Origin: a virus | Taxonomy: Duplodnaviria > Heunggongvirae > Uroviricota > Caudoviricetes | IMG/VR virus record: IMGVR_UViG_3300029702_000330 | DNA: 34,527 bases | Strand: one strand, 5' to 3' | Shown here: piece by piece, positions 20 to 18,472 of the stretch | How positions within the stretch are numbered: position 1 is the stretch's first letter | How the letters are laid out: each line of letters begins with the position of its first letter | The notes under the pieces: generated by a model | Told to the model about the DNA's origin: nothing | Seen by the model: only the letters and a program-made list of their open reading frames with translations | Database searches by the model: none | Program-made: the position numbers and the translations under genes

Positions 20-1315
20 TTAATTTTTCATTGCTTCGTTATGGGGCATGGTTGGGGCAAACTCGCTTAACTGTGTATTTAACAAAGCTACCTGTGCATT
101 ATTGTTTTCAGACATCCATTTTCCGTATACCTGAAATACCATTTGCGCATCTGCATGGCCCATCTGGTTTGCTATAAATGCCGGGTTAGCACCAGCTGTC
201 AGCGACCAGCAGGCATAAGTATGTCTCGACTGATATGATTTTCGATGGCGGAGTCCGGCACGTTTTATCGCTGCGTCCCACATCTGCCTTATTGAGTCAA
301 CGGTAAAATGGTCACCATAATTTTTTACTCTCGCTGACACTTCAGGTTGAAAAACAAAGGTGCATTTTTGTTTTTCTGTTCTGCCATACTCTCTGAGGTG
401 AACATCAATGATATGCTCTTTGCTCAGTCTCGTTAATGTCATCTGACTCCGGAGAGCGTCGATTGCTGGCTTAATAAGATGAATGACCCGATTGGTTCCC
501 GCCTGTGTTTTTGGTACCGTGAAACGGTCTTTTGCTAAATTTCTCCTGATCATCATTGTTCCATTTTTCAGATCTATGTCCTCCCATCCAAGTGCACACA
601 GCTCACCAGGGCGAACGCCAGTATAAACAGAAACACACCATAAATTTTTTGCTTGCTGATTTCTGCATGCATCGATAAGACGGATAAATTCCTCCCGCGA
701 AAGAGGATCCGGAATGGTTCTTGATTCCTTTAATGGCGAGATCCCCTTAAACGGATTATCTGCCAGGTAACCGTTATCAACACCAAACTGGAACACGGCG
801 TTAAGATTTGTCATGTAATTATTTACAGTTACAGCCGATCTCCCTGGTTGTGTAACAATATAGTTACTTTTGGGGATCTGGTATCCAGTCAGTAGCTCTT
901 TACGAACCTCCAGTAATTTTTCTTTATTAATCGATGAGGCAAGATTTTTTTCACCGATTATGCTCAGGATATTTTTGATGACGGCACGGTATGTGTTGAG
1001 TGATGTTTTGGCGACTTCAGTTTCTTTCAGTGCCAGAAATTTTTCAGCCAGTTCTTTTATGGTTAAATCTTGTCGGGCCTCACCAAATTTTTCCAGATTG
1101 CGTGAGGAGGGAAACTGTTTTGCATAGTCGAAAACACCAGTTTTTATTGCGTAACAAACAGAGGAGCGTAGTTCACCTGCAACGCGCCTGTTTTTTGCTG
1201 TGTCAGGAACCCCCAGATTTTCCCTGACTCTTACGCCTTTATAAACAAACCAGATACGTAATTTCCCTCCATGGTTTTCCACGCCTGTCGGATATTTCAT
1301 TTCAACTTCTCTCAT
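20..1315 (-). CDS. Phage tyrosine integrase (site-specific recombinase); true start may be the internal Met at 1300
   Basis: 431-aa ORF at the window edge; N-terminal 'YPTGVE...GKLRIWF' arm-binding style and C-terminal catalytic region (R...H..R...Y pattern) typical of lambdoid/Rac-type integrases; followed on the same strand by an excisionase-like ORF. Confidence 0.85.
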   Translation of the reverse strand: MREVEMKYPTGVENHGGKLRIWFVYKGVRVRENLGVPDTAKNRRVAGELRSSVCYAIKTGVFDYAKQFPSSRNLEKFGEARQDLTIKELAEKFLALKETEVAKTSLNTYRAVIKNILSIIGEKNLASSINKEKLLEVRKELLTGYQIPKSNYIVTQPGRSAVTVNNYMTNLNAVFQFGVDNGYLADNPFKGISPLKESRTIPDPLSREEFIRLIDACRNQQAKNLWCVSVYTGVRPGELCALGWEDIDLKNGTMMIRRNLAKDRFTVPKTQAGTNRVIHLIKPAIDALRSQMTLTRLSKEHIIDVHLREYGRTEKQKCTFVFQPEVSARVKNYGDHFTVDSIRQMWDAAIKRAGLRHRKSYQSRHTYACWSLTAGANPAFIANQMGHADAQMVFQVYGKWMSENNNAQVALLNTQLSEFAPTMPHNEAMKN

Positions 1316-1658: not shown

Positions 1659-4130
1659 TTAAGAATCAGCCTGACTCGGGATCAGTTTTTGCCAGATAAC
1701 TGAAACGTATTTTGCCTGGTAACGGGCGTCATCAAGTGCATTATGGCGCTCACCTTCGAATGGAATAGCCGTTCTGGCATCGAAGTCTATGGCTTTCCCC
1801 AGCTCAACGATTGTGCGTACATCGCGATCGTTGTAGTAACGCCACGGGCAGGGGAGCCCCTGCCGTTCGTATGAACGGCGCAAAATCGTGTTGTCGAAGT
1901 TGGCTCCATTTCCCCAAACCTGAACAAAAAATTCACCGGAGTTTTCGTCGATAAATTCCCGCAATTGTAACAGTGCATCATCTAACGGGATTTCATCGGT
2001 CATAATGGCAGATTGCGCTTCGCGTGATTGCTTAAGCCACCATTTAATGGTGTCCCGATCAATGACTCCGCCAGCAGTTTCCAGATCGATAGTCTTACTA
2101 AATTCCGGTCCCATATCTCCGGTTTGCGGATCGAAAAATATTGCACCTATTGAGATGATCGGCGCATCAGGATTTTTTCCCATGGTTTCAAGGTCGATCA
2201 TTAGATGGTCACACGTCCTGCTGGTGGATGTGATTTCGTGATGACCGTTCACCTTAATTGGGTGATCTGCCGTCTCGCCAGTTTCATTATCGCTATTGTG
2301 ATGCTGATTGCCGCCAGTGTTCTCCTTGTGTGGATGTTCAGCGCCTTCCATTTCCTCCGGATCATCTTCCTGAACTTCAACCTGATACTCTTCATCGAAT
2401 GTTTCTTGGTATGTTGCGTCGCCCATCACCGCGCCACAATCAGGGCAGTTGCCGCCGCCGGTCTGACCGCAGGCGGTGCAGGCTTTTTCCACTTCCTGGT
2501 GCGCCACTGGTTCAGGCTGTTTCGTTTCTGGCTCGTTTTGTAACGCATTTGGACTGTTTTGTTCCGCTTTTTGGTAGTTCCGTTCCGATTCATGCTGGTT
2601 CTGGTTCACAGAATCGCGGGTCTGGATCCCCTTAACCCATTTCGGATCATTCGGGTCACTAATCCCTTCAACAAATTCACCACGTGATGCAGCAAGCAAC
2701 TTATCGGCGTCAGGCTGGCTGATATTGGCTGCCTGCATAATTTTGTTTACTTCGTCAGCGGTAACTTTTATCGGCTCTGGTTGTTCTGAATCTTCAGCGG
2801 TATCTACATTTTGCGGTAAGCCCGTGTATGTGCCATTTTTTCGGGCAAAATATTCTTCTTTTGTGATTTCAGTGGCGCCAGCAGCCAGTGCCTTATCCAG
2901 ACCAGAAAGTTTGTTTGCGCGACCGTATTTTTCTCCGTCCTTATCTGCGAAGAGGAAATAGAACGGCCCCTCACGCTCTACAGATGGTTCAGCTTCCGGC
3001 GCGGTTTCATTTTTTGGGATATCAGATACCTCAGTTTCCACTGCATCAGTTTGTGTTTCTGATGACTGGAGAACATCAACAGTGCCCAGGTCTGTTTCTT
3101 CATTCTCAAACACGCCCTTTGTCGTCAGGTATTCGCAGATATATTTGTTCAGTGCTACGGGATCTTTGTGAATGTCGATCGGACGCTCACGGACAAGGCC
3201 AAAAATAGTTTGGCGGTCGTAGCGAAGGGCATCAGGCTGTTTGCGCATTGATGCCGAGATACGCTTCCAGTCTTCGCGGTCGTTGTCGATAACTTCTTTT
3301 TTTGCCCAGCGATGGATGCTGCCGTCAATGTTTCTGGCATCCACATCACCAGGCCAGAGAGCGTAGGCCAGTTCGTCATCCAGTGTTTTCCATGTCTGCT
3401 TGTATTCGCGATGAATGGCAGCAATGACCGGGCTGATTTTTCCTGTTGAATTTTCAGTGTACTGTTGATTGGCTCTGGCGCGGGCGAGATCAACAACAGA
3501 CGTGTATTTTCCGGTTTCCTTGCGTTCACCTTCGCGACGTTTTTTCCAGATGCGCATCTCTGCCTGAATTTCGGGCCATTTAGCACCAGGAATACATTTA
3601 TGCTTAACCCACCCAATGGCGTGCAACTTAAGCTCCGGATACATGGCGTTAACTTCTGGCATTTTCATCAACGCTTCAACGATATGTCCGTCGAATGTTG
3701 CCATGTCTTCCTGCAACAATTCCTGTGCGCTAATAACCATATCAACGGTGATGTTTTCACATGTGTCGAACTTAACCATGACAGCGTTCTGTACTTCAGG
3801 GGCCAGCTTGTCAAAAGTGACGTTCATCGGATCGGATTCAGTCTCAACCGGGACAAAAGAAGCAGACTCCTCATCCCAGCGGTTTTCCTGCATATATTCA
3901 GCATCCCATGAATCGAGGGCAGGGCGGGGTATGCCAGGTTTATCCTCGCAGACGATAAATTTATAAGCGCAGTCCTGAGCAGCCGGATAATGTTCCAGGA
4001 ATTGCCAGTGAAATTTTGCTCGAGCACGGCGTTCGTCGCCAGCTTCAATGGCTGTGGCTACAGCCACAGCGCCTTCTTCCCTTGTTGCCAGTTCGTCAGG
4101 AATAGCGGCGCAAATAAAGACTTTACTCAT
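1659..4130 (-). CDS. Large phage exonuclease with C-terminal DnaQ-like (DEDDh) 3'-5' exonuclease domain; commonly annotated exodeoxyribonuclease VIII-like in prophages
   Basis: 823-aa ORF; C-terminus shows Exo I 'MIDLETMG', Exo II 'VWGNGANFDNTIL' and Exo III 'HNALDDARY' motifs; central acidic low-complexity linker and a CxxC...CxxC zinc-ribbon ('CTACGQ...CPDCG'). Confidence 0.7.
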   Translation of the reverse strand: MSKVFICAAIPDELATREEGAVAVATAIEAGDERRARAKFHWQFLEHYPAAQDCAYKFIVCEDKPGIPRPALDSWDAEYMQENRWDEESASFVPVETESDPMNVTFDKLAPEVQNAVMVKFDTCENITVDMVISAQELLQEDMATFDGHIVEALMKMPEVNAMYPELKLHAIGWVKHKCIPGAKWPEIQAEMRIWKKRREGERKETGKYTSVVDLARARANQQYTENSTGKISPVIAAIHREYKQTWKTLDDELAYALWPGDVDARNIDGSIHRWAKKEVIDNDREDWKRISASMRKQPDALRYDRQTIFGLVRERPIDIHKDPVALNKYICEYLTTKGVFENEETDLGTVDVLQSSETQTDAVETEVSDIPKNETAPEAEPSVEREGPFYFLFADKDGEKYGRANKLSGLDKALAAGATEITKEEYFARKNGTYTGLPQNVDTAEDSEQPEPIKVTADEVNKIMQAANISQPDADKLLAASRGEFVEGISDPNDPKWVKGIQTRDSVNQNQHESERNYQKAEQNSPNALQNEPETKQPEPVAHQEVEKACTACGQTGGGNCPDCGAVMGDATYQETFDEEYQVEVQEDDPEEMEGAEHPHKENTGGNQHHNSDNETGETADHPIKVNGHHEITSTSRTCDHLMIDLETMGKNPDAPIISIGAIFFDPQTGDMGPEFSKTIDLETAGGVIDRDTIKWWLKQSREAQSAIMTDEIPLDDALLQLREFIDENSGEFFVQVWGNGANFDNTILRRSYERQGLPCPWRYYNDRDVRTIVELGKAIDFDARTAIPFEGERHNALDDARYQAKYVSVIWQKLIPSQADS

Positions 4131-4600: not shown

Positions 4601-5086
4601 TATCGCGTCCTCAACAATGAATTTTGTGATGCAGTGCCTGGTGCCTCCAGGTGACGTTAACCAGTTAACAATTAACGTCGGATACAGAGAATCCACCCAT
4701 AACACTGTTTTTGGTTTTAACTGTTCCGCGTGCGCTTAGCCGCATTCACCGCATCACAAAATTCACTTTAAAAACGGCGGCAGAGCAGTCACGGAGTAAA
4801 ACTGATACCGCCAAACGTCACCAGAAAATTGATAACAGAGGGCGTTGCAGCGGGGTTGTCACTTAAGCGTATGGTCAACCTGACAACTCGGTGTCCTCAA
4901 CGGGGAAGGAATAACCCCGCCATACTTACCGCCGCGCCATTTTGCGGGTTGCCACAACCGGAAGCGCACGGTCGAATTAAATTTAACGACACCGTACAGT
5001 GAGACGAACTTCGCCGTGCGCTTTCGTGTTGTGTGCCTGCTTTTAACCACGTCAGGCGAGGTGGTATCCTTAAAATCACCACAGTT

Positions 5087-5987: not shown

Positions 5988-6395
5988 TTATTTTATTGAT
6001 TTATTTTTACGCGCTTTAAGCATTTCTTCGAAGAGTTTGTTGAAGTTTTCTACTCTTGCGCGCATTTCAGACAGCAAGGCTTCCTGCTCGGAAGATGGAA
6101 GAGCATCGAATAATTCGATCAATTCTTTGTGGTTGGGAGTTAGCTCTGTTTCCACATGAAGTTCTTGTGCCGGCACTGGTGCCTTGTCTTCGTCACCAAA
6201 CATTAGCCATGTAGGTGAGCACTTCAGAGCATCCGCTAAAGCAAACAATCGTTTTCCGACTGGCTGGGTTTCGTCTCTTTCCCATTGTGAAATTGTGACG
6301 TGAGCAACCCCAGCGAGGCGCGCAGCTTCTCGTTGTGTTAAGCGTAATTCTTTTCGTCGCGCCAGAACTCGCTGGCCTAGGGTTCTTGTATCCAT
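5988..6395 (-). CDS. Prophage repressor, XRE-family HTH (CI/DicA-like)
   Basis: 135-aa ORF with N-terminal HTH 'LRLTQREAARLAGVAHVTISQWERDE'; divergent from a Cro-like gene; resembles DicA of Qin from memory. Confidence 0.85.
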   Translation of the reverse strand: MDTRTLGQRVLARRKELRLTQREAARLAGVAHVTISQWERDETQPVGKRLFALADALKCSPTWLMFGDEDKAPVPAQELHVETELTPNHKELIELFDALPSSEQEALLSEMRARVENFNKLFEEMLKARKNKSIK

Positions 6396-6396
6396 A

Positions 6397-6461
6397 GTTA
6401 GGTAATTCTAATTTTTCTTGACTTAGGTATCCCGCGCACAATAATGTTAGAAAAGTCTAAC
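6397..6461. promoter_or_regulatory. Divergent promoter/operator region: two operator copies (6397-6412 imperfect GTTAGGTAATTCTAAT; 6446-6461 perfect GTTAGAAAAGTCTAAC) flanking a sigma70-like promoter (TTGACT 6418-6423, -10 CATAAT 6440-6445)
   Basis: Palindromes and promoter hexamers read directly; the perfect operator lies immediately downstream of the -10 and upstream of the Cro-like start. Confidence 0.5.
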
Positions 6462-6472
6462 AATAGGAGGCT

Positions 6473-6703
6473 TTGATGCTTAAAGCTGACGCAATTACTT
6501 TTTTTGGCAGCAAAACAAAGCTTGCCAATGCCGCAGGAGTGAGACTAGCAAGTGTTGCTGCTTGGGGGATACTGGTTCCTGAAGGTCGCGCGATGCGTCT
6601 ACAGGAGGCATCTGGCGGGGAGCTTCAGTATGATCCCAAAGTTTATGACGAATATCGTAAGACGAAGCGGGCGGGGCGGTTGAACAATGAAAATCACTCC
6701 TGA
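6473..6703 (+). CDS. Cro/DicC-like small regulatory protein
   Basis: 76-aa ORF divergent from the repressor with AGGAGG RBS; resembles DicC-type Cro analogues from memory. Confidence 0.7.
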   Translation: MMLKADAITFFGSKTKLANAAGVRLASVAAWGILVPEGRAMRLQEASGGELQYDPKVYDEYRKTKRAGRLNNENHS

Positions 6704-7208
6704 ACAGGCTCGTGAGGCTCTGGATGCCTGGATATGTCGACCAGGAATGACACAGGAGCAGGCGACGATATTAATCACTGAAGCATTCTGGGCTTTGAAA
6801 GAGCGCCCGAACATCGATGTTCAGCGTGTCACAGATGAAGGTGGCGCGGTTGATCAGCGAGCGCTTGGCGTTAATCGAGTGAAGATATTCGAACGCTGGA
6901 AGGCTATCGACACTAGGGATAAGCGTGAAAAGTTCACGGCGCTAGTGCCTGCAATTATGGAGGCTATCCGGATTAATGATTTCAGGTTGTATCGTGAAAT
7001 TAGTGACGGAAAAAGCATCACGTACATGATCGCCGGGTTAAACAAAGAATATGGCGATGTGGTGGAGTCCGGACTGCTTTTTGCTGATCCTGCCGTAGTG
7101 GATCGTGAAACTGACGAACTTATAGAAAAAGCAATTGCTTTCAAACTTGCGTATCGACTGCAATACCAACAAAAAGCTGGATGGAATTATGAGCCTTCTT
7201 TTTGCTGA
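6687..7208 (+). CDS. YdaT-like phage regulatory protein (tentative)
   Basis: 173-aa ORF overlapping the Cro-like stop by 17 nt; position and overall character match the YdaT family that follows Cro analogues in Rac-like prophages. Confidence 0.45.
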   Translation: MKITPEQAREALDAWICRPGMTQEQATILITEAFWALKERPNIDVQRVTDEGGAVDQRALGVNRVKIFERWKAIDTRDKREKFTALVPAIMEAIRINDFRLYREISDGKSITYMIAGLNKEYGDVVESGLLFADPAVVDRETDELIEKAIAFKLAYRLQYQQKAGWNYEPSFC

Positions 7209-8154
7209 ACGCCCACTGGTTATAAACACACAGCTTGCGATGAAGATTGGCTTAAATGAAGCCATTGTGTTGCAGCAGTTGCATTACTGGTTGAGAGATA
7301 CCAATTCCGGCATGGAATGTGATGGTGTTCGCTGGATTTACAACACAACGGAACAATGGCTGGAACAGTTCCCATTCTGGTCAGAGTCAACTTTAAAGCG
7401 CGCGTTTGCAAGTCTGAAAACGCTGGGGCTTTTGCGTTGTGAAAAGCTCAATAAATCAAAGCGCGATATGACCAATTTCTACACGATCAACTATGGGAGC
7501 GAGCTTTTAGATGGTGGCAAATTGAGCGAATCCATCGGTTCAAAATGCGCCGCTCCATCAGGTCAAAATGACACGATGGAAGAGGTCAAAATGAAACGCT
7601 CCATTGGTTCAAAACGACCCAATGTCATCGGGTCAAAATGGCCTGATGATCTTACAGAGAATACAACAGAGATTACTACAGAGAATAAAAACACTTTTCG
7701 TCCGGAAGCTTCGCAACCGGACCCGCAGACGACTGAACAGGATTTTTTAACCCGGAACTCCGACGCGGTTGTGTTTAGTGCGAAAAAACGCCAGTGGGGT
7801 AGCAGGGAGGATTTGGCGTGTGCGCAGTGGATCTGGGGGCGGATCGTGGGTCTCTACGAACAGGCAGCCAGTGATGATGGCGAGATCATGCGACCAAAAG
7901 AGCCTAACTGGACTGCCTGGGCCAATGACGTGCGCACAATGCGGATGCTGGATGGCAGAAGCCACAGACAAATTTGCGAAATGTTTGGTCGGGTACAGCG
8001 AGATCCATTCTGGGTAAAAAACATCATGAGCCCGTCAAAGCTTCGTGAAAAATGGGATGAACTGGTCATCCGTCTGGGGCGTTCGTCTGTACAGCGTTGT
8101 GTGAATCATATTTCTGAACCGGATACAGAAATTCCGCCTGGTTTCAGGGGATAA
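7189..8154 (+). CDS. Phage replication initiation protein / replisome organizer (O-like winged-helix N-terminus); ORF extends upstream to 7135
   Basis: N-terminal 'LAMKIGLNEAIVLQQLHYWL' helix-turn-helix typical of replisome-organizer initiators; gene contains iteron repeats; no DnaC/P-like helper follows. Confidence 0.7.
   Translation: MSLLFAERPLVINTQLAMKIGLNEAIVLQQLHYWLRDTNSGMECDGVRWIYNTTEQWLEQFPFWSESTLKRAFASLKTLGLLRCEKLNKSKRDMTNFYTINYGSELLDGGKLSESIGSKCAAPSGQNDTMEEVKMKRSIGSKRPNVIGSKWPDDLTENTTEITTENKNTFRPEASQPDPQTTEQDFLTRNSDAVVFSAKKRQWGSREDLACAQWIWGRIVGLYEQAASDDGEIMRPKEPNWTAWANDVRTMRMLDGRSHRQICEMFGRVQRDPFWVKNIMSPSKLREKWDELVIRLGRSSVQRCVNHISEPDTEIPPGFRG
7531..7640. repeat. Five direct iterons (consensus about TCCATCGGTTCAAAATG) at roughly 23-bp spacing inside the replication initiator gene; candidate replication origin
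   Basis: GGT(T)CAAAA core starts at 7538, 7561, 7584, 7606, 7631; encodes a repeated '...IGSK' peptide, as seen for ori-lambda within gene O. Confidence 0.6.
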
Positions 8155-8194
8155 GTGTTGATTTCAGGTCATGAGGTAATTTTAAGGGGGACTT

Positions 8195-17699: not shown

Positions 17700-18060
17700 G
17701 GTAATATTAAATCGGAACATTTACATCGCGGAATGTAAAATTTAAATAAAAAGGACTCTTCCATGAGCCAAAATTCCTGAAATCTTAAGGGTAAGATAAA
17801 AGGTCTTAATCAGAATGACACTTTTATTAATAAATAAAGCTATTCTTTCATTGCTGTGTTTTTCTTTACAAAAGTAATCCTTGCTATGGGTGGTTAATCA
17901 TGCGTTAATGGTGTTCTGGTTTGTTACAAATTTATCTGAAGCAGTCATTGTTATAATTTTATTATTTGTATCTCTTGAGATTTCCTTGTTGGTTTTTCTC
18001 TCTGATATTTTTTTTCGGACCATTCTGCCCAAGGGCTAATTTCTTCAAAAGGTAATAATT

Positions 18061-18273
18061 ATGTCTAACAAAATGACTGGTTTAGTGAAATGGTTTAACC
18101 CTGAAAAAGGTTTTGGTTTCATCACGCCGAAAGATGGCAGCAAAGATGTGTTTGTCCATTTCTCAGCAATTCAGAGCAACGATTTCAAAACATTAACTGA
18201 GAATCAGGAAGTTGAATTTGGTATTGAGAACGGACCTAAAGGTCCTGCCGCTGTTCATGTAGTGGCGCTTTGA
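18061..18273 (+). CDS. Cold-shock protein family (CspI-like), 70 aa
   Basis: '[37 protein letters not shown]' canonical CspA-family sequence; long AT-rich 5' leader. Confidence 0.9.
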
Positions 18274-18472
18274 GGTAGACAATATTACAAACCATATTCA
18301 CTTTAGATGCCCGTGTTGTCATGGTTCCCAGTATAGAACATCATCTTTTGATGTTTCTGACATGAATCCTTTCGGGGCAAAATGTATCTTTTGTAAATCA
18401 ATGATGATTACATTTGATAATATTTCACAATACTTAAATGCCAGCCGTCTGTCGTTGGATTTAAAAAAGTGA
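18263..18472 (+). pseudogene. Zinc-ribbon paralogue of the 15754-15924 gene lacking a canonical start codon (possible pseudogene or non-canonical start)
   Basis: Frame encodes 'RCPCCHGSQYRTSSFDVSDMNPFGAKCIFCKSMM...', same CxCC...CxxC pattern as the other zinc-ribbon gene; no ATG/GTG/TTG upstream of the first Cys cluster; followed by a terminator hairpin at 18478-18500. Confidence 0.3.

Follow-up and report, generated by a model that had tools for sequence, protein, structure and literature searches.

Identification of a candidate replication origin

In 34,527 nucleotides (nt) of DNA from the virus record IMGVR_UViG_3300029702_000330 of IMG/VR (hereafter the window, i.e., the whole stretch that was analyzed), positions 7510-7690 most probably represent the vegetative replication origin of a lambdoid, Qin/Kim-like Escherichia coli prophage, and we give this reading a probability of about 0.85. 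The candidate origin is situated in the linker-coding part of the replication initiator gene (7189..8154, + strand, RefSeq start), whose product of 321 amino acids (aa) is filed in RefSeq as WP_000054513.1 and described there as 'hypothetical protein'. It is composed of iterons with a period of 23 bp, which covary with the predicted DNA-binding domain encoded by the same gene, and of three adjacent 12-nt repeats.

Among the PHROGs, the initiator matches phrog_391, 'replication initiation O-like' (1.6e-91). Residues 147-294 align to the C-terminal half of lambda O with 34% identity over 148 aa (BLASTP, 1e-26), and a tblastn search with the initiator matched the O genes of lambda, 933W, and HK225. 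Except for a match of 22 residues to DnaT in the tail, no family was found for the protein in Pfam (E<=0.01) and NCBIfam. From the N- to the C-terminus, the protein comprises a winged-helix domain (aa 8-105; 7210..7503) that is predicted to bind DNA, with a fold of the RepA_N/DnaD type and a recognition helix at aa 66-78; a disordered inter-domain linker (aa 109-175; 7513..7713), for which the AlphaFold2 (AF2) model gives predicted local distance difference test (pLDDT) values below 50 at aa 109-175 and block means of 23-27 at aa 111-170; a helical C-domain (aa 180-298; 7726..8082) homologous to that of lambda O, with AF2 helices at a pLDDT of 68-85; and a disordered tail (aa 299-321; 8083..8151), which matches the C-terminus of the host DnaT. 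All of these segments are encoded on the + strand. According to the AF2 domain map, the iterons encode approximately aa 115-151 and the 12-nt repeats aa 155-167, and therefore the whole candidate origin lies in the linker-coding segment. An earlier interpretation made from the letters alone, in the following the sequence-only reading, had taken the gene for a replication initiator and the layout for that of lambda, with the origin within gene O. Both the similarity to phrog_391 and to the lambda O C-domain and the position of the repeats between the domains, as in lambda, are in good agreement with this view.

The initiator gene is 99.7% identical in PhiR42_1 (host given as E. coli ECOR13), 99.1% in HannyBb, and 97.8% in mEp460_ev081. 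Due to the presence of such a gene in these three phage-collection records, the module is carried by sequenced phage genomes. Of 5426 complete E. coli genomes, 3957 showed a match to some part of the gene, and in 1780 the match comprised at least 80% of it.

The iteron array

The pattern GKTCAAAAYG occurs five times in the window, with both strands searched, and all matches fall within 7538-7640; the chance expectation is 0.45 +/- 0.63, and none of 100 shuffled sequences reached five. A repeat search returned five copies with starts at 7517, 7540, 7563, 7586, and 7610, i.e., with start-to-start distances of 23, 23, 23, and 24 nt. At a lag of 23 nt the array is identical to itself at 59 of 92 positions, which ties with the top value among tiles of the whole window. 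Neither 500 shuffles of synonymous codons, with a maximum of 53, nor 500 shuffles of the codon order, with a maximum of 47, came up to it. The CAAAA cores at 7541, 7564, 7587, 7610, and 7634 are read in frames 1, 0, 2, 1, and 1 of the open reading frame (ORF), respectively. Due to the fact that the cores occupy all three frames, the repeat is one of the DNA and not of the peptide.

Each unit is a 23-bp imperfect palindrome of the form CATCnGGTCA-AAA-TGACnnGATG. Iteron 1 (CATCGGTTCAAAATGCGCCGCTC, 7533..7555), iteron 2 (CATCAGGTCAAAATGACACGATG, 7556..7578), which is the best palindrome, iteron 3 (GAAGAGGTCAAAATGAAACGCTC, 7579..7601), iteron 4 (CATTGGTTCAAAACGACCCAATGT, 7602..7625), which is a unit of 24 bp, and iteron 5 (CATCGGGTCAAAATGGCCTGATG, 7626..7648) were obtained on the + strand by the repeat search and the pattern matches. 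A degenerate sixth unit on the same strand, termed iteron 0 (GATGGTGGCAAATTGAGCGAATC, 7510..7532), has the core TGGCAaatTGAGC and is located in phase, exactly 23 bp upstream of iteron 1; in close relatives a good GGTCAAAGTGAC copy is found in this place. The five iterons of about 23 bp postulated by the sequence-only reading are thus present where they had been placed, and their units align better than chance, as none of the codon-level shuffles attained the observed identity. Its limits of 7531-7640 capture the core region correctly, but the real span is slightly larger (7510-7648), because the degenerate unit has to be counted in. Similarly, the 'direct orientation' has to be refined, as each unit is an imperfect palindrome; the array looks directly oriented only because the left half of each palindrome is better kept.

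Neither a perfect DnaA box nor an integration host factor (IHF) consensus was found near the array, and an Rfam scan gave no match in the initiator gene. The second strongest short-period self-similarity of the window (lag 21, 56/92) is located at approximately 2495-2590 in an exonuclease VIII-like gene (1659-4130, - strand) and is probably a 7-residue protein repeat of a RecE-like exonuclease.

Covariation of the iterons with the N-terminal domain

For comparison, one locus per species was fetched by means of the N-domain alone, yielding 80 loci with 44-99% identity from Enterobacterales, Pseudomonas, Acinetobacter, Comamonas, Bacillus, Staphylococcus, lactobacilli, and others. In the 360 nt past the N-domain, 22-24 bp is the strongest short-range periodicity in most of the 80 loci and in nearly all Gram-negative ones, and it clearly surpasses the maximum found in the remainder of each locus. 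A lack of repeats at this position in homologous initiators, named by the sequence-only reading as a case against it, was thus not observed; in about 80 species repeats occur at the same position and with the same period, and they covary with the DNA-binding domain. The general form of the iteron is G-N-x-CA-(A/T)3-TG-x-N-C, with a half-site that varies by lineage (GGTCA, GGGCA/GTGCA, GGACA, GATCA, or ACCCA).

One Klebsiella phage and one Hafnia phage differ in the C-domain but have retained the N-domain together with the iterons and the 12-nt repeats. SfII shows the same C-domain with an unrelated N-domain, different iterons (GTCAAAATCTGAC, 15-bp spacing), and no 12-nt repeats. The recombination joint between the modules sits just past the 12-nt repeats. 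Judged from these natural domain swaps, it is the N-domain that the iterons follow, rather than the C-domain.

The predicted specificity residue is residue 67, the second one in the predicted recognition helix (WSE-S-TLKR); in the window it is a serine (codon 7387-7389, + strand). Asp at this position is accompanied by G as third base of the half-site in 58 of 58 cases, Ser by T in 61 of 62, and Asn or His by C in 9 of 10; Lys occurs with A or T. On a neighbour-joining tree calculated with the residue-67 column left out, the residue changes 16 times and the base 13 times, with approximately 11 coincident changes. Because the combined state of both changes only 18 times, residue and base changes mostly coincide. 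Furthermore, in ten relatives with 70-100% N-domain identity, third codon positions are conserved to 70% in the N-domain, to 86-87% in the iteron array, and to 98% in the 12-nt repeats. Taken from sequence comparison, these findings argue strongly, if indirectly, that the iterons are read by the N-domain and that selection acts on the DNA as such.

Three contigs of metagenome-assembled genomes (MAGs) in the set, labelled Veillonella parvula (L009), Bacillota bacterium (L011), and Collinsella sp. (L056), have an N-domain 99-100% identical to that of the E. coli prophage and most likely represent DNA from an E. coli prophage that was binned wrongly. In case of L055 from Shigella flexneri SFBU0723 (approximately 2661-2990), the initiator frame is broken and the 12-nt repeats read YREYNRDYYRE*, with iterons and 12-nt repeats retained; by its sequence, this locus is a decaying copy of the same replication module.

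The 12-mer block

Three 12-nt repeats (12-mers), TACAGAGAATAC, AACAGAGATTAC, and TACAGAGAATAA, of the form (T/A)ACAGAGAnTAC occupy 7653..7688 on the + strand and represent the candidate unwinding and helicase-loading element. The surrounding 7649-7694 has a GC content of 35%, a local minimum, and 7652-7691 is the least stable 40-mer of the initiator gene and belongs to the top 1.7% of the window. An AT-rich unwinding element next to the iterons, which the sequence-only reading had suggested to search for, is accordingly found directly after them.

The motif CAGAGAnT(A/T)C is present in 59 out of 82 loci, and most of the remaining loci contain close 12-mer variants, e.g., ACAAAGACTAC. Its density is 4.74/kb in origin zones versus 0.007/kb elsewhere (approximately 650-fold). 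The block usually starts 21-24 nt past the start of the last iteron, which corresponds to one iteron period. When blocks were defined by the peptide pattern only, Glu was encoded by GAG in 140 of 140 cases, compared to 44% elsewhere in the same genes. Six genome loci as well as L110 and L128 contain an off-frame copy that is read as TRDY or NRDY, and in several loci a 12-mer copy that lies 11 nt from its neighbour is read in another frame. The conservation of the 12-mer concerns the DNA itself and extends from Proteobacteria to Firmicutes.

When viral contigs were searched for two adjacent 12-mers, 80 loci were obtained, 74 of which carry them in sense orientation within an ORF of at least 200 aa, typically approximately 135-200 codons into the ORF and after an N-terminal domain. 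The N-domain profile was matched in 52 of the 80. About 25 N-domains of these contigs are too divergent for the profile, and most of the 13 that were inspected show about four unrelated iterons with 21-23-bp spacing before the block. As far as these sequences indicate, the iterons vary with the protein while the 12-mer block stays constant. A literature search for the 12-mer block revealed no description of it. The 12-mer, as read by eye, does not fit the DnaA-trio pattern.

Two further observations concern this motif. An IMG/VR contig labelled GVMAG (L110, 113 kb) contains four tandem ACAGAGATTACA units at 765-786 (- strand), preceded by 21-bp repeats in an ORF of 470 aa; its units are read in a different frame (DYNRDYNR). 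This may point to an origin like those of bacterial phages in an unexpected bin or else to wrong binning of the contig. In the A+T-rich origin flank of lambda (J02459, 39119-39179; L008 820-880), ACAAAAGA occurs twice and GTCAGAGAATTC once. Both resemble the family units ACAAAGAnTAC and CAGAGAATAC, which could be due to shared ancestry or to coincidence.

The DnaT-like tail and the missing loader

No P, DnaC/IstB, or DnaB-like gene was found in the window by profile searches that covered the stretch from the integrase gene to the tail genes. A loader gene was also not found in mEp460, PhiR42_1, SfII, and the Klebsiella and Hafnia relatives. The gene following the initiator (DUF977) occupies the slot of lambda P and is not a helicase loader; the remark of the sequence-only reading that a helper of the DnaC/P type is missing downstream can thus be extended to the whole integrase-to-tail stretch.

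The tail of the initiator is identical to residues 148-179 of E. coli DnaT at 17 of 32 positions (BLASTP, 2e-08) and matches positions 158-179 of the NCBIfam DnaT model with 16.9 bits versus a cut-off of 201. Matches were also obtained to the PDB chains 2RU8, 6AEP, and 9ZBT. E. coli DnaT ends with ...VNTVSEPDSQIPPGFRG and the initiator with ...VNHISEPDTEIPPGFRG; the pattern SEPDxxIPPGFRG is represented by ISEPDTEIPPGFRG here versus VSEPDSQIPPGFRG in E. coli DnaT. The possibility that the tail sequence was recently transferred between dnaT and the phage was considered and rejected, because the DNA is only partly identical and differs from dnaT at many synonymous sites in the tail.

When scored across species by the pattern [IVLTA]PxG[FW][RKN], the tail is present in 26 complete initiators, combined with either of two unrelated types of C-domain. 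Tail bearers with an organism named in the record belong exclusively to the Enterobacterales. Exceptions are given by three MAG contigs, two of which are near-identical copies of the E. coli gene binned as Firmicutes (probably mis-binned), the third being assigned to an uncultured bacterium. None of the 26 initiators with the tail, versus 26 of 47 without it, has an adjacent loader or helicase gene (Fisher p=3.5e-7, calculated on related sequences). These 26 neighbours comprise 19 DnaC/IstB, 5 DnaB, and 2 lambda P genes. In case of Trabulsiella (L019), the same N-domain is combined with a C-domain of the lambda O type, a different tail, and an adjacent lambda P gene. The C-domain of DnaT docks on PriA and forms filaments on single-stranded DNA, and the mode of DnaB/DnaC recruitment is described there as unknown (PMC13377028). 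The tail of the initiator may substitute for a phage loader by docking on the partner of the DnaT tail.

Proposed mechanism

The initiator would be made from the rightward early transcript, and transcription from the pR-like promoter may assist initiation, as in lambda. Dimers of the N-domain would then bind the five or six 23-bp palindromic iterons, whereby Ser67 at the start of the recognition helix may read the T of GGTCA, as suggested by the covariation. By analogy with lambda O and pSK41 RepA, the 23-bp phasing together with the A-tract at each centre could give rise to a wrapped, O-some-like complex. This complex would strain and open the adjacent least stable stretch, i.e., the three TACAGAGAnTAC repeats at 7653-7688. 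Because the phage encodes no P, DnaC, or DnaB, we presume that the C-domain and the DnaT-like tail (...SEPDTEIPPGFRG) bring in the helicase-loading machinery of the host directly, via the partner of the DnaT tail.

A more far-reaching idea, which we consider possible but rather doubtful, is that the 12-mer block, which from Enterobacterales to Staphylococcus and Lactobacillus is found constant in genes of winged-helix initiators beside iterons that are otherwise unrelated, is more than an easily melted spacer and acts in helicase loading or priming as a signal specific in both sequence and strand, recognized by a bacteria-wide factor or by a conserved face of the initiator. In the Enterobacterales branch, the DnaT-like tail would then enable a single phage protein to plug the origin directly into the restart primosome of the host (PriA, DnaT, or DnaB-DnaC), and a phage loader would be superfluous. 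If true, the tail would identify the contact by which DnaT hands over to the helicase machinery.

Alternative explanations

The periodicity might reflect a repeated peptide of a low-complexity linker (GSK/GQN, TTEN/TTEI), with the DNA itself having no role. Indeed the linker reads SIGSK...SIGSKR...VIGSKW and TENTTEITTEN, and the 12-nt repeat preserves the frame, with 184 of 187 copies in viral contigs reading T-E. However, a period of 23 bp puts the cores in all three frames, not one of the 500 synonymous-codon shuffles reproduced the periodicity, and third codon positions are more conserved in the array and the 12-mers than in the folded N-domain. The exclusive use of GAG in the peptide-defined blocks and the off-frame copies (TRDY/NRDY) in the six genome loci, L110, and L128 argue against it as well. 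In addition, the segment is predicted to be disordered, and the equivalent linker of pSK41 Rep is dispensable for protein function (PMC5703833). This explanation is therefore hardly credible. Alternatively, the repeats might be sites at which the initiator or a regulator acts in regulation, e.g., autorepression, copy control by handcuffing, or exclusion of related phages, with the true origin elsewhere in the prophage. Plasmid iterons serve copy control too, and the least stable 40-mer of the region is not found at the array but at 8591 in an intergenic position. This stretch, however, is not conserved with the module, as relatives have different genes after the initiator, and no other motif cluster exists anywhere in the 34.5-kb window. 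Moreover, the unstable 12-mer block is located usually one period after the iterons across phyla, which is the anatomy of proven origins (oriLambda, PMC7466680; pSK41, PMC5703833). We regard a purely regulatory role as unlikely, though less so than a peptide repeat. Finally, the array might once have been an origin and now be a relic in a defective prophage that no longer fires. Many lambdoid prophages of E. coli are cryptic, the window has Qin-type features (DicF, cold-shock gene leaders, hok/sok), and the Shigella copy L055 has a broken initiator frame. Against this stand the intact initiator ORF, its nearly identical counterparts in PhiR42_1, HannyBb, and mEp460_ev081, and the occurrence of integrase, Q, lysis, terminase, portal, and tail genes in the window. 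A relic thus appears very unlikely, and it would bear on the activity of this copy and not on the identity of the element.

Several points weigh against the interpretation of 7510-7690 as the origin. The literature search yielded no binding, unwinding, or replication assay for the element or a close relative; searches on the tail motif, on mEp460/SfII replication, and on in-gene origins of replisome organisers gave no description of the origin family either; and among phages whose origin or Rep has experimental support, none could be linked to the N-domain family (TP901-1 and A2 were compared). The N-domain has no sequence similarity to the N-domain of lambda O, for which BLASTP aligns the C-terminal halves only, or to any Pfam family, and because of this lack of similarity to known families its DNA-binding role rests on the predicted fold and the covariation. 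The AF2 model is based on 18 closely related sequences and is of mediocre quality as a whole (mean pLDDT 58), with values of 66-85 for most of the two folded domains. Both the covariation and the tail/loader test use related sequences, and their nominal p-values overstate independence. The A+T-rich element is only moderately unstable with its 35% GC and ranks second within 6400-8700 after the intergenic stretch at 8591. The function of the extreme C-terminus of DnaT is not established in PMC13377028, PMC4132743, and PMC5778457. Finally, this copy of the prophage could be defective.

Prophage context

The cI-like repressor gene (5988-6395, - strand) is divergent from cro (6473-6703, + strand), and between them a pR-like sigma-70 promoter (TTGACT-16-AATAAT, 6418..6445, + strand) was recognized by a consensus scan only, with 10 of 12 positions matched. 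Rightward transcription from it may cover cro, the cII-like gene, and the initiator and thereby run through the origin. The YdaT/cII-like gene (6687-7208) is the upstream neighbour of the initiator gene, whose start codon overlaps its end by 20 nt (7189-7208), suggesting translational coupling. Downstream, the DUF977 gene (8195..8596, + strand; Pfam PF06163, 6.2e-27) also matches phrog_142, 'Ren-like exclusion protein'. The second gene after the initiator encodes a GmrSD-family protein (PF03235) of 604 aa (9011-10825, + strand). In near-identical prophages this slot is occupied by a SIR2-family gene (O55:H7 RM12579) or a methyltransferase gene (PhiR42_1), and its location directly past the replication module resembles an exchange hot spot for defence genes. 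The Q, lysis, terminase, and tail genes lie beyond the GmrSD-family gene, and the integrase and portal genes are in the window as well.

A match to the DicF antisense small RNA (Rfam, 72.5 bits) at 4775-4826 (- strand) identifies the prophage as Qin/Kim-like, and dicB is located nearby in the related O55:H7 locus. The sok antitoxin RNA (Rfam, 115 bits) is found at 11285-11459 (+ strand) and overlaps a small ORF (11397-11609), which is probably the hok toxin gene; in the O55:H7 prophage, the corresponding slot carries an annotated hokD gene. Two matches to the cspA-type 5' untranslated region thermoregulator, at 15014-15406 (+ strand, 159 bits) and 17915-18300 (+ strand, 109 bits), imply two prophage-borne cold-shock protein genes that flank the lysis region.

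Implications and comparison with known systems

With the assignment proposed here, a 'hypothetical protein' of RefSeq gains an origin, and a very common prophage module can be annotated by a simple rule, i.e., N-domain, iterons of 22-24 bp, and CAGAGAnTAC block. Knowledge of one residue (67) and one base would suffice to predict incompatibility and specificity classes. Furthermore, the module offers a natural system for studying the recruitment of the host helicase to a phage origin in the absence of a phage loader, and the shared tail makes the coupling of DnaT to the DnaB/DnaC machinery directly testable.

The label 'Primosomal protein I', which is used in some phage records, is a misnomer, because the initiator is predicted to be an origin-binding protein and not a restart adaptor. 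The last approximately 28 residues of E. coli DnaT are nearly identical in pattern (VNxxSEPDxxIPPGFRG), but BLASTP aligns only residues 148-179, and no similarity was detected to its N-domain and acidic linker, which serve oligomerisation and PriB binding, or to its three-helix bundle, which binds single-stranded DNA; by sequence, the initiator is not a DnaT orthologue. The domesticated lambda-O-like DopC (Brezellec et al. 2017, PMC5509034) similarly unites an O-type N-terminal helix-turn-helix (HTH) with the C-terminal DnaT motif. In contrast to the initiator with its iterons and without a P-like partner, DopC is chromosomal, paired with the P-like DopE, and reported without in-gene iterons (PMC5509034).

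The lone replication protein Rep, or 'replisome organiser', of the temperate phage TP901-1 (ORF13, 'replication protein, experimental' in the record) resembles the initiator in that no loader gene follows and that repeats and then an A+T-rich tract are located mid-gene. It differs by the absence of detectable sequence similarity, by the sequence and number of its repeats, and by the lack of both a CAGAGAnTAC block and a DnaT-like tail. Phage A2 differs in having a primase-type module and an intergenic origin. The RepA_N plasmids pSK41 and pTZ2162, whose origin lies inside rep, share with the initiator the predicted winged-helix, DnaD-like fold of the N-domain and, in case of pSK41, repeats in the central, linker-coding segment of the gene (PMC5703833). 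Differences are that the initiator does not match Pfam RepA_N (PF06970), is of phage and not of plasmid origin, and has a C-domain of the lambda O type, whereas the partner of the pSK41 C-domain is the DnaG primase.

The most extensive likeness is that to oriLambda in gene O and to the six-iteron origins of the Shiga toxin (Stx) phages 933W and P27, in which the origin is located mid-gene in the initiator (PMC7466680). These origins share an array of four to six iterons in phase, each with internal dyad symmetry and an A-rich centre; the spacing in lambda is 20, 24, and 23 bp, and iteron 1 of lambda and iteron 4 of the prophage have the centre TCAAAACGA in common. The iterons are followed, on the same side in both, by a tract rich in purines and in A+T, the C-domains are homologous (34% identity) in a two-domain initiator with an origin-encoded linker, and the gene order is repressor, cro, cII-like gene, initiator. 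Unlike in lambda, the N-domain is without detectable similarity and does not match Pfam Phage_rep_O or HTH_36, no P gene is present, and the DnaT-like tail replaces the end of lambda O. The melting tract is less extreme and consists of an ordered 12-nt repeat instead of an irregular A-run. All in all, our analysis places the element among the lambda-type in-gene origins, ordinary in principle and predicted to work like oriLambda and the RepA_N origin of pSK41; the constant 12-mer block and the mutual exclusion of tail and loader might be its less expected parts.

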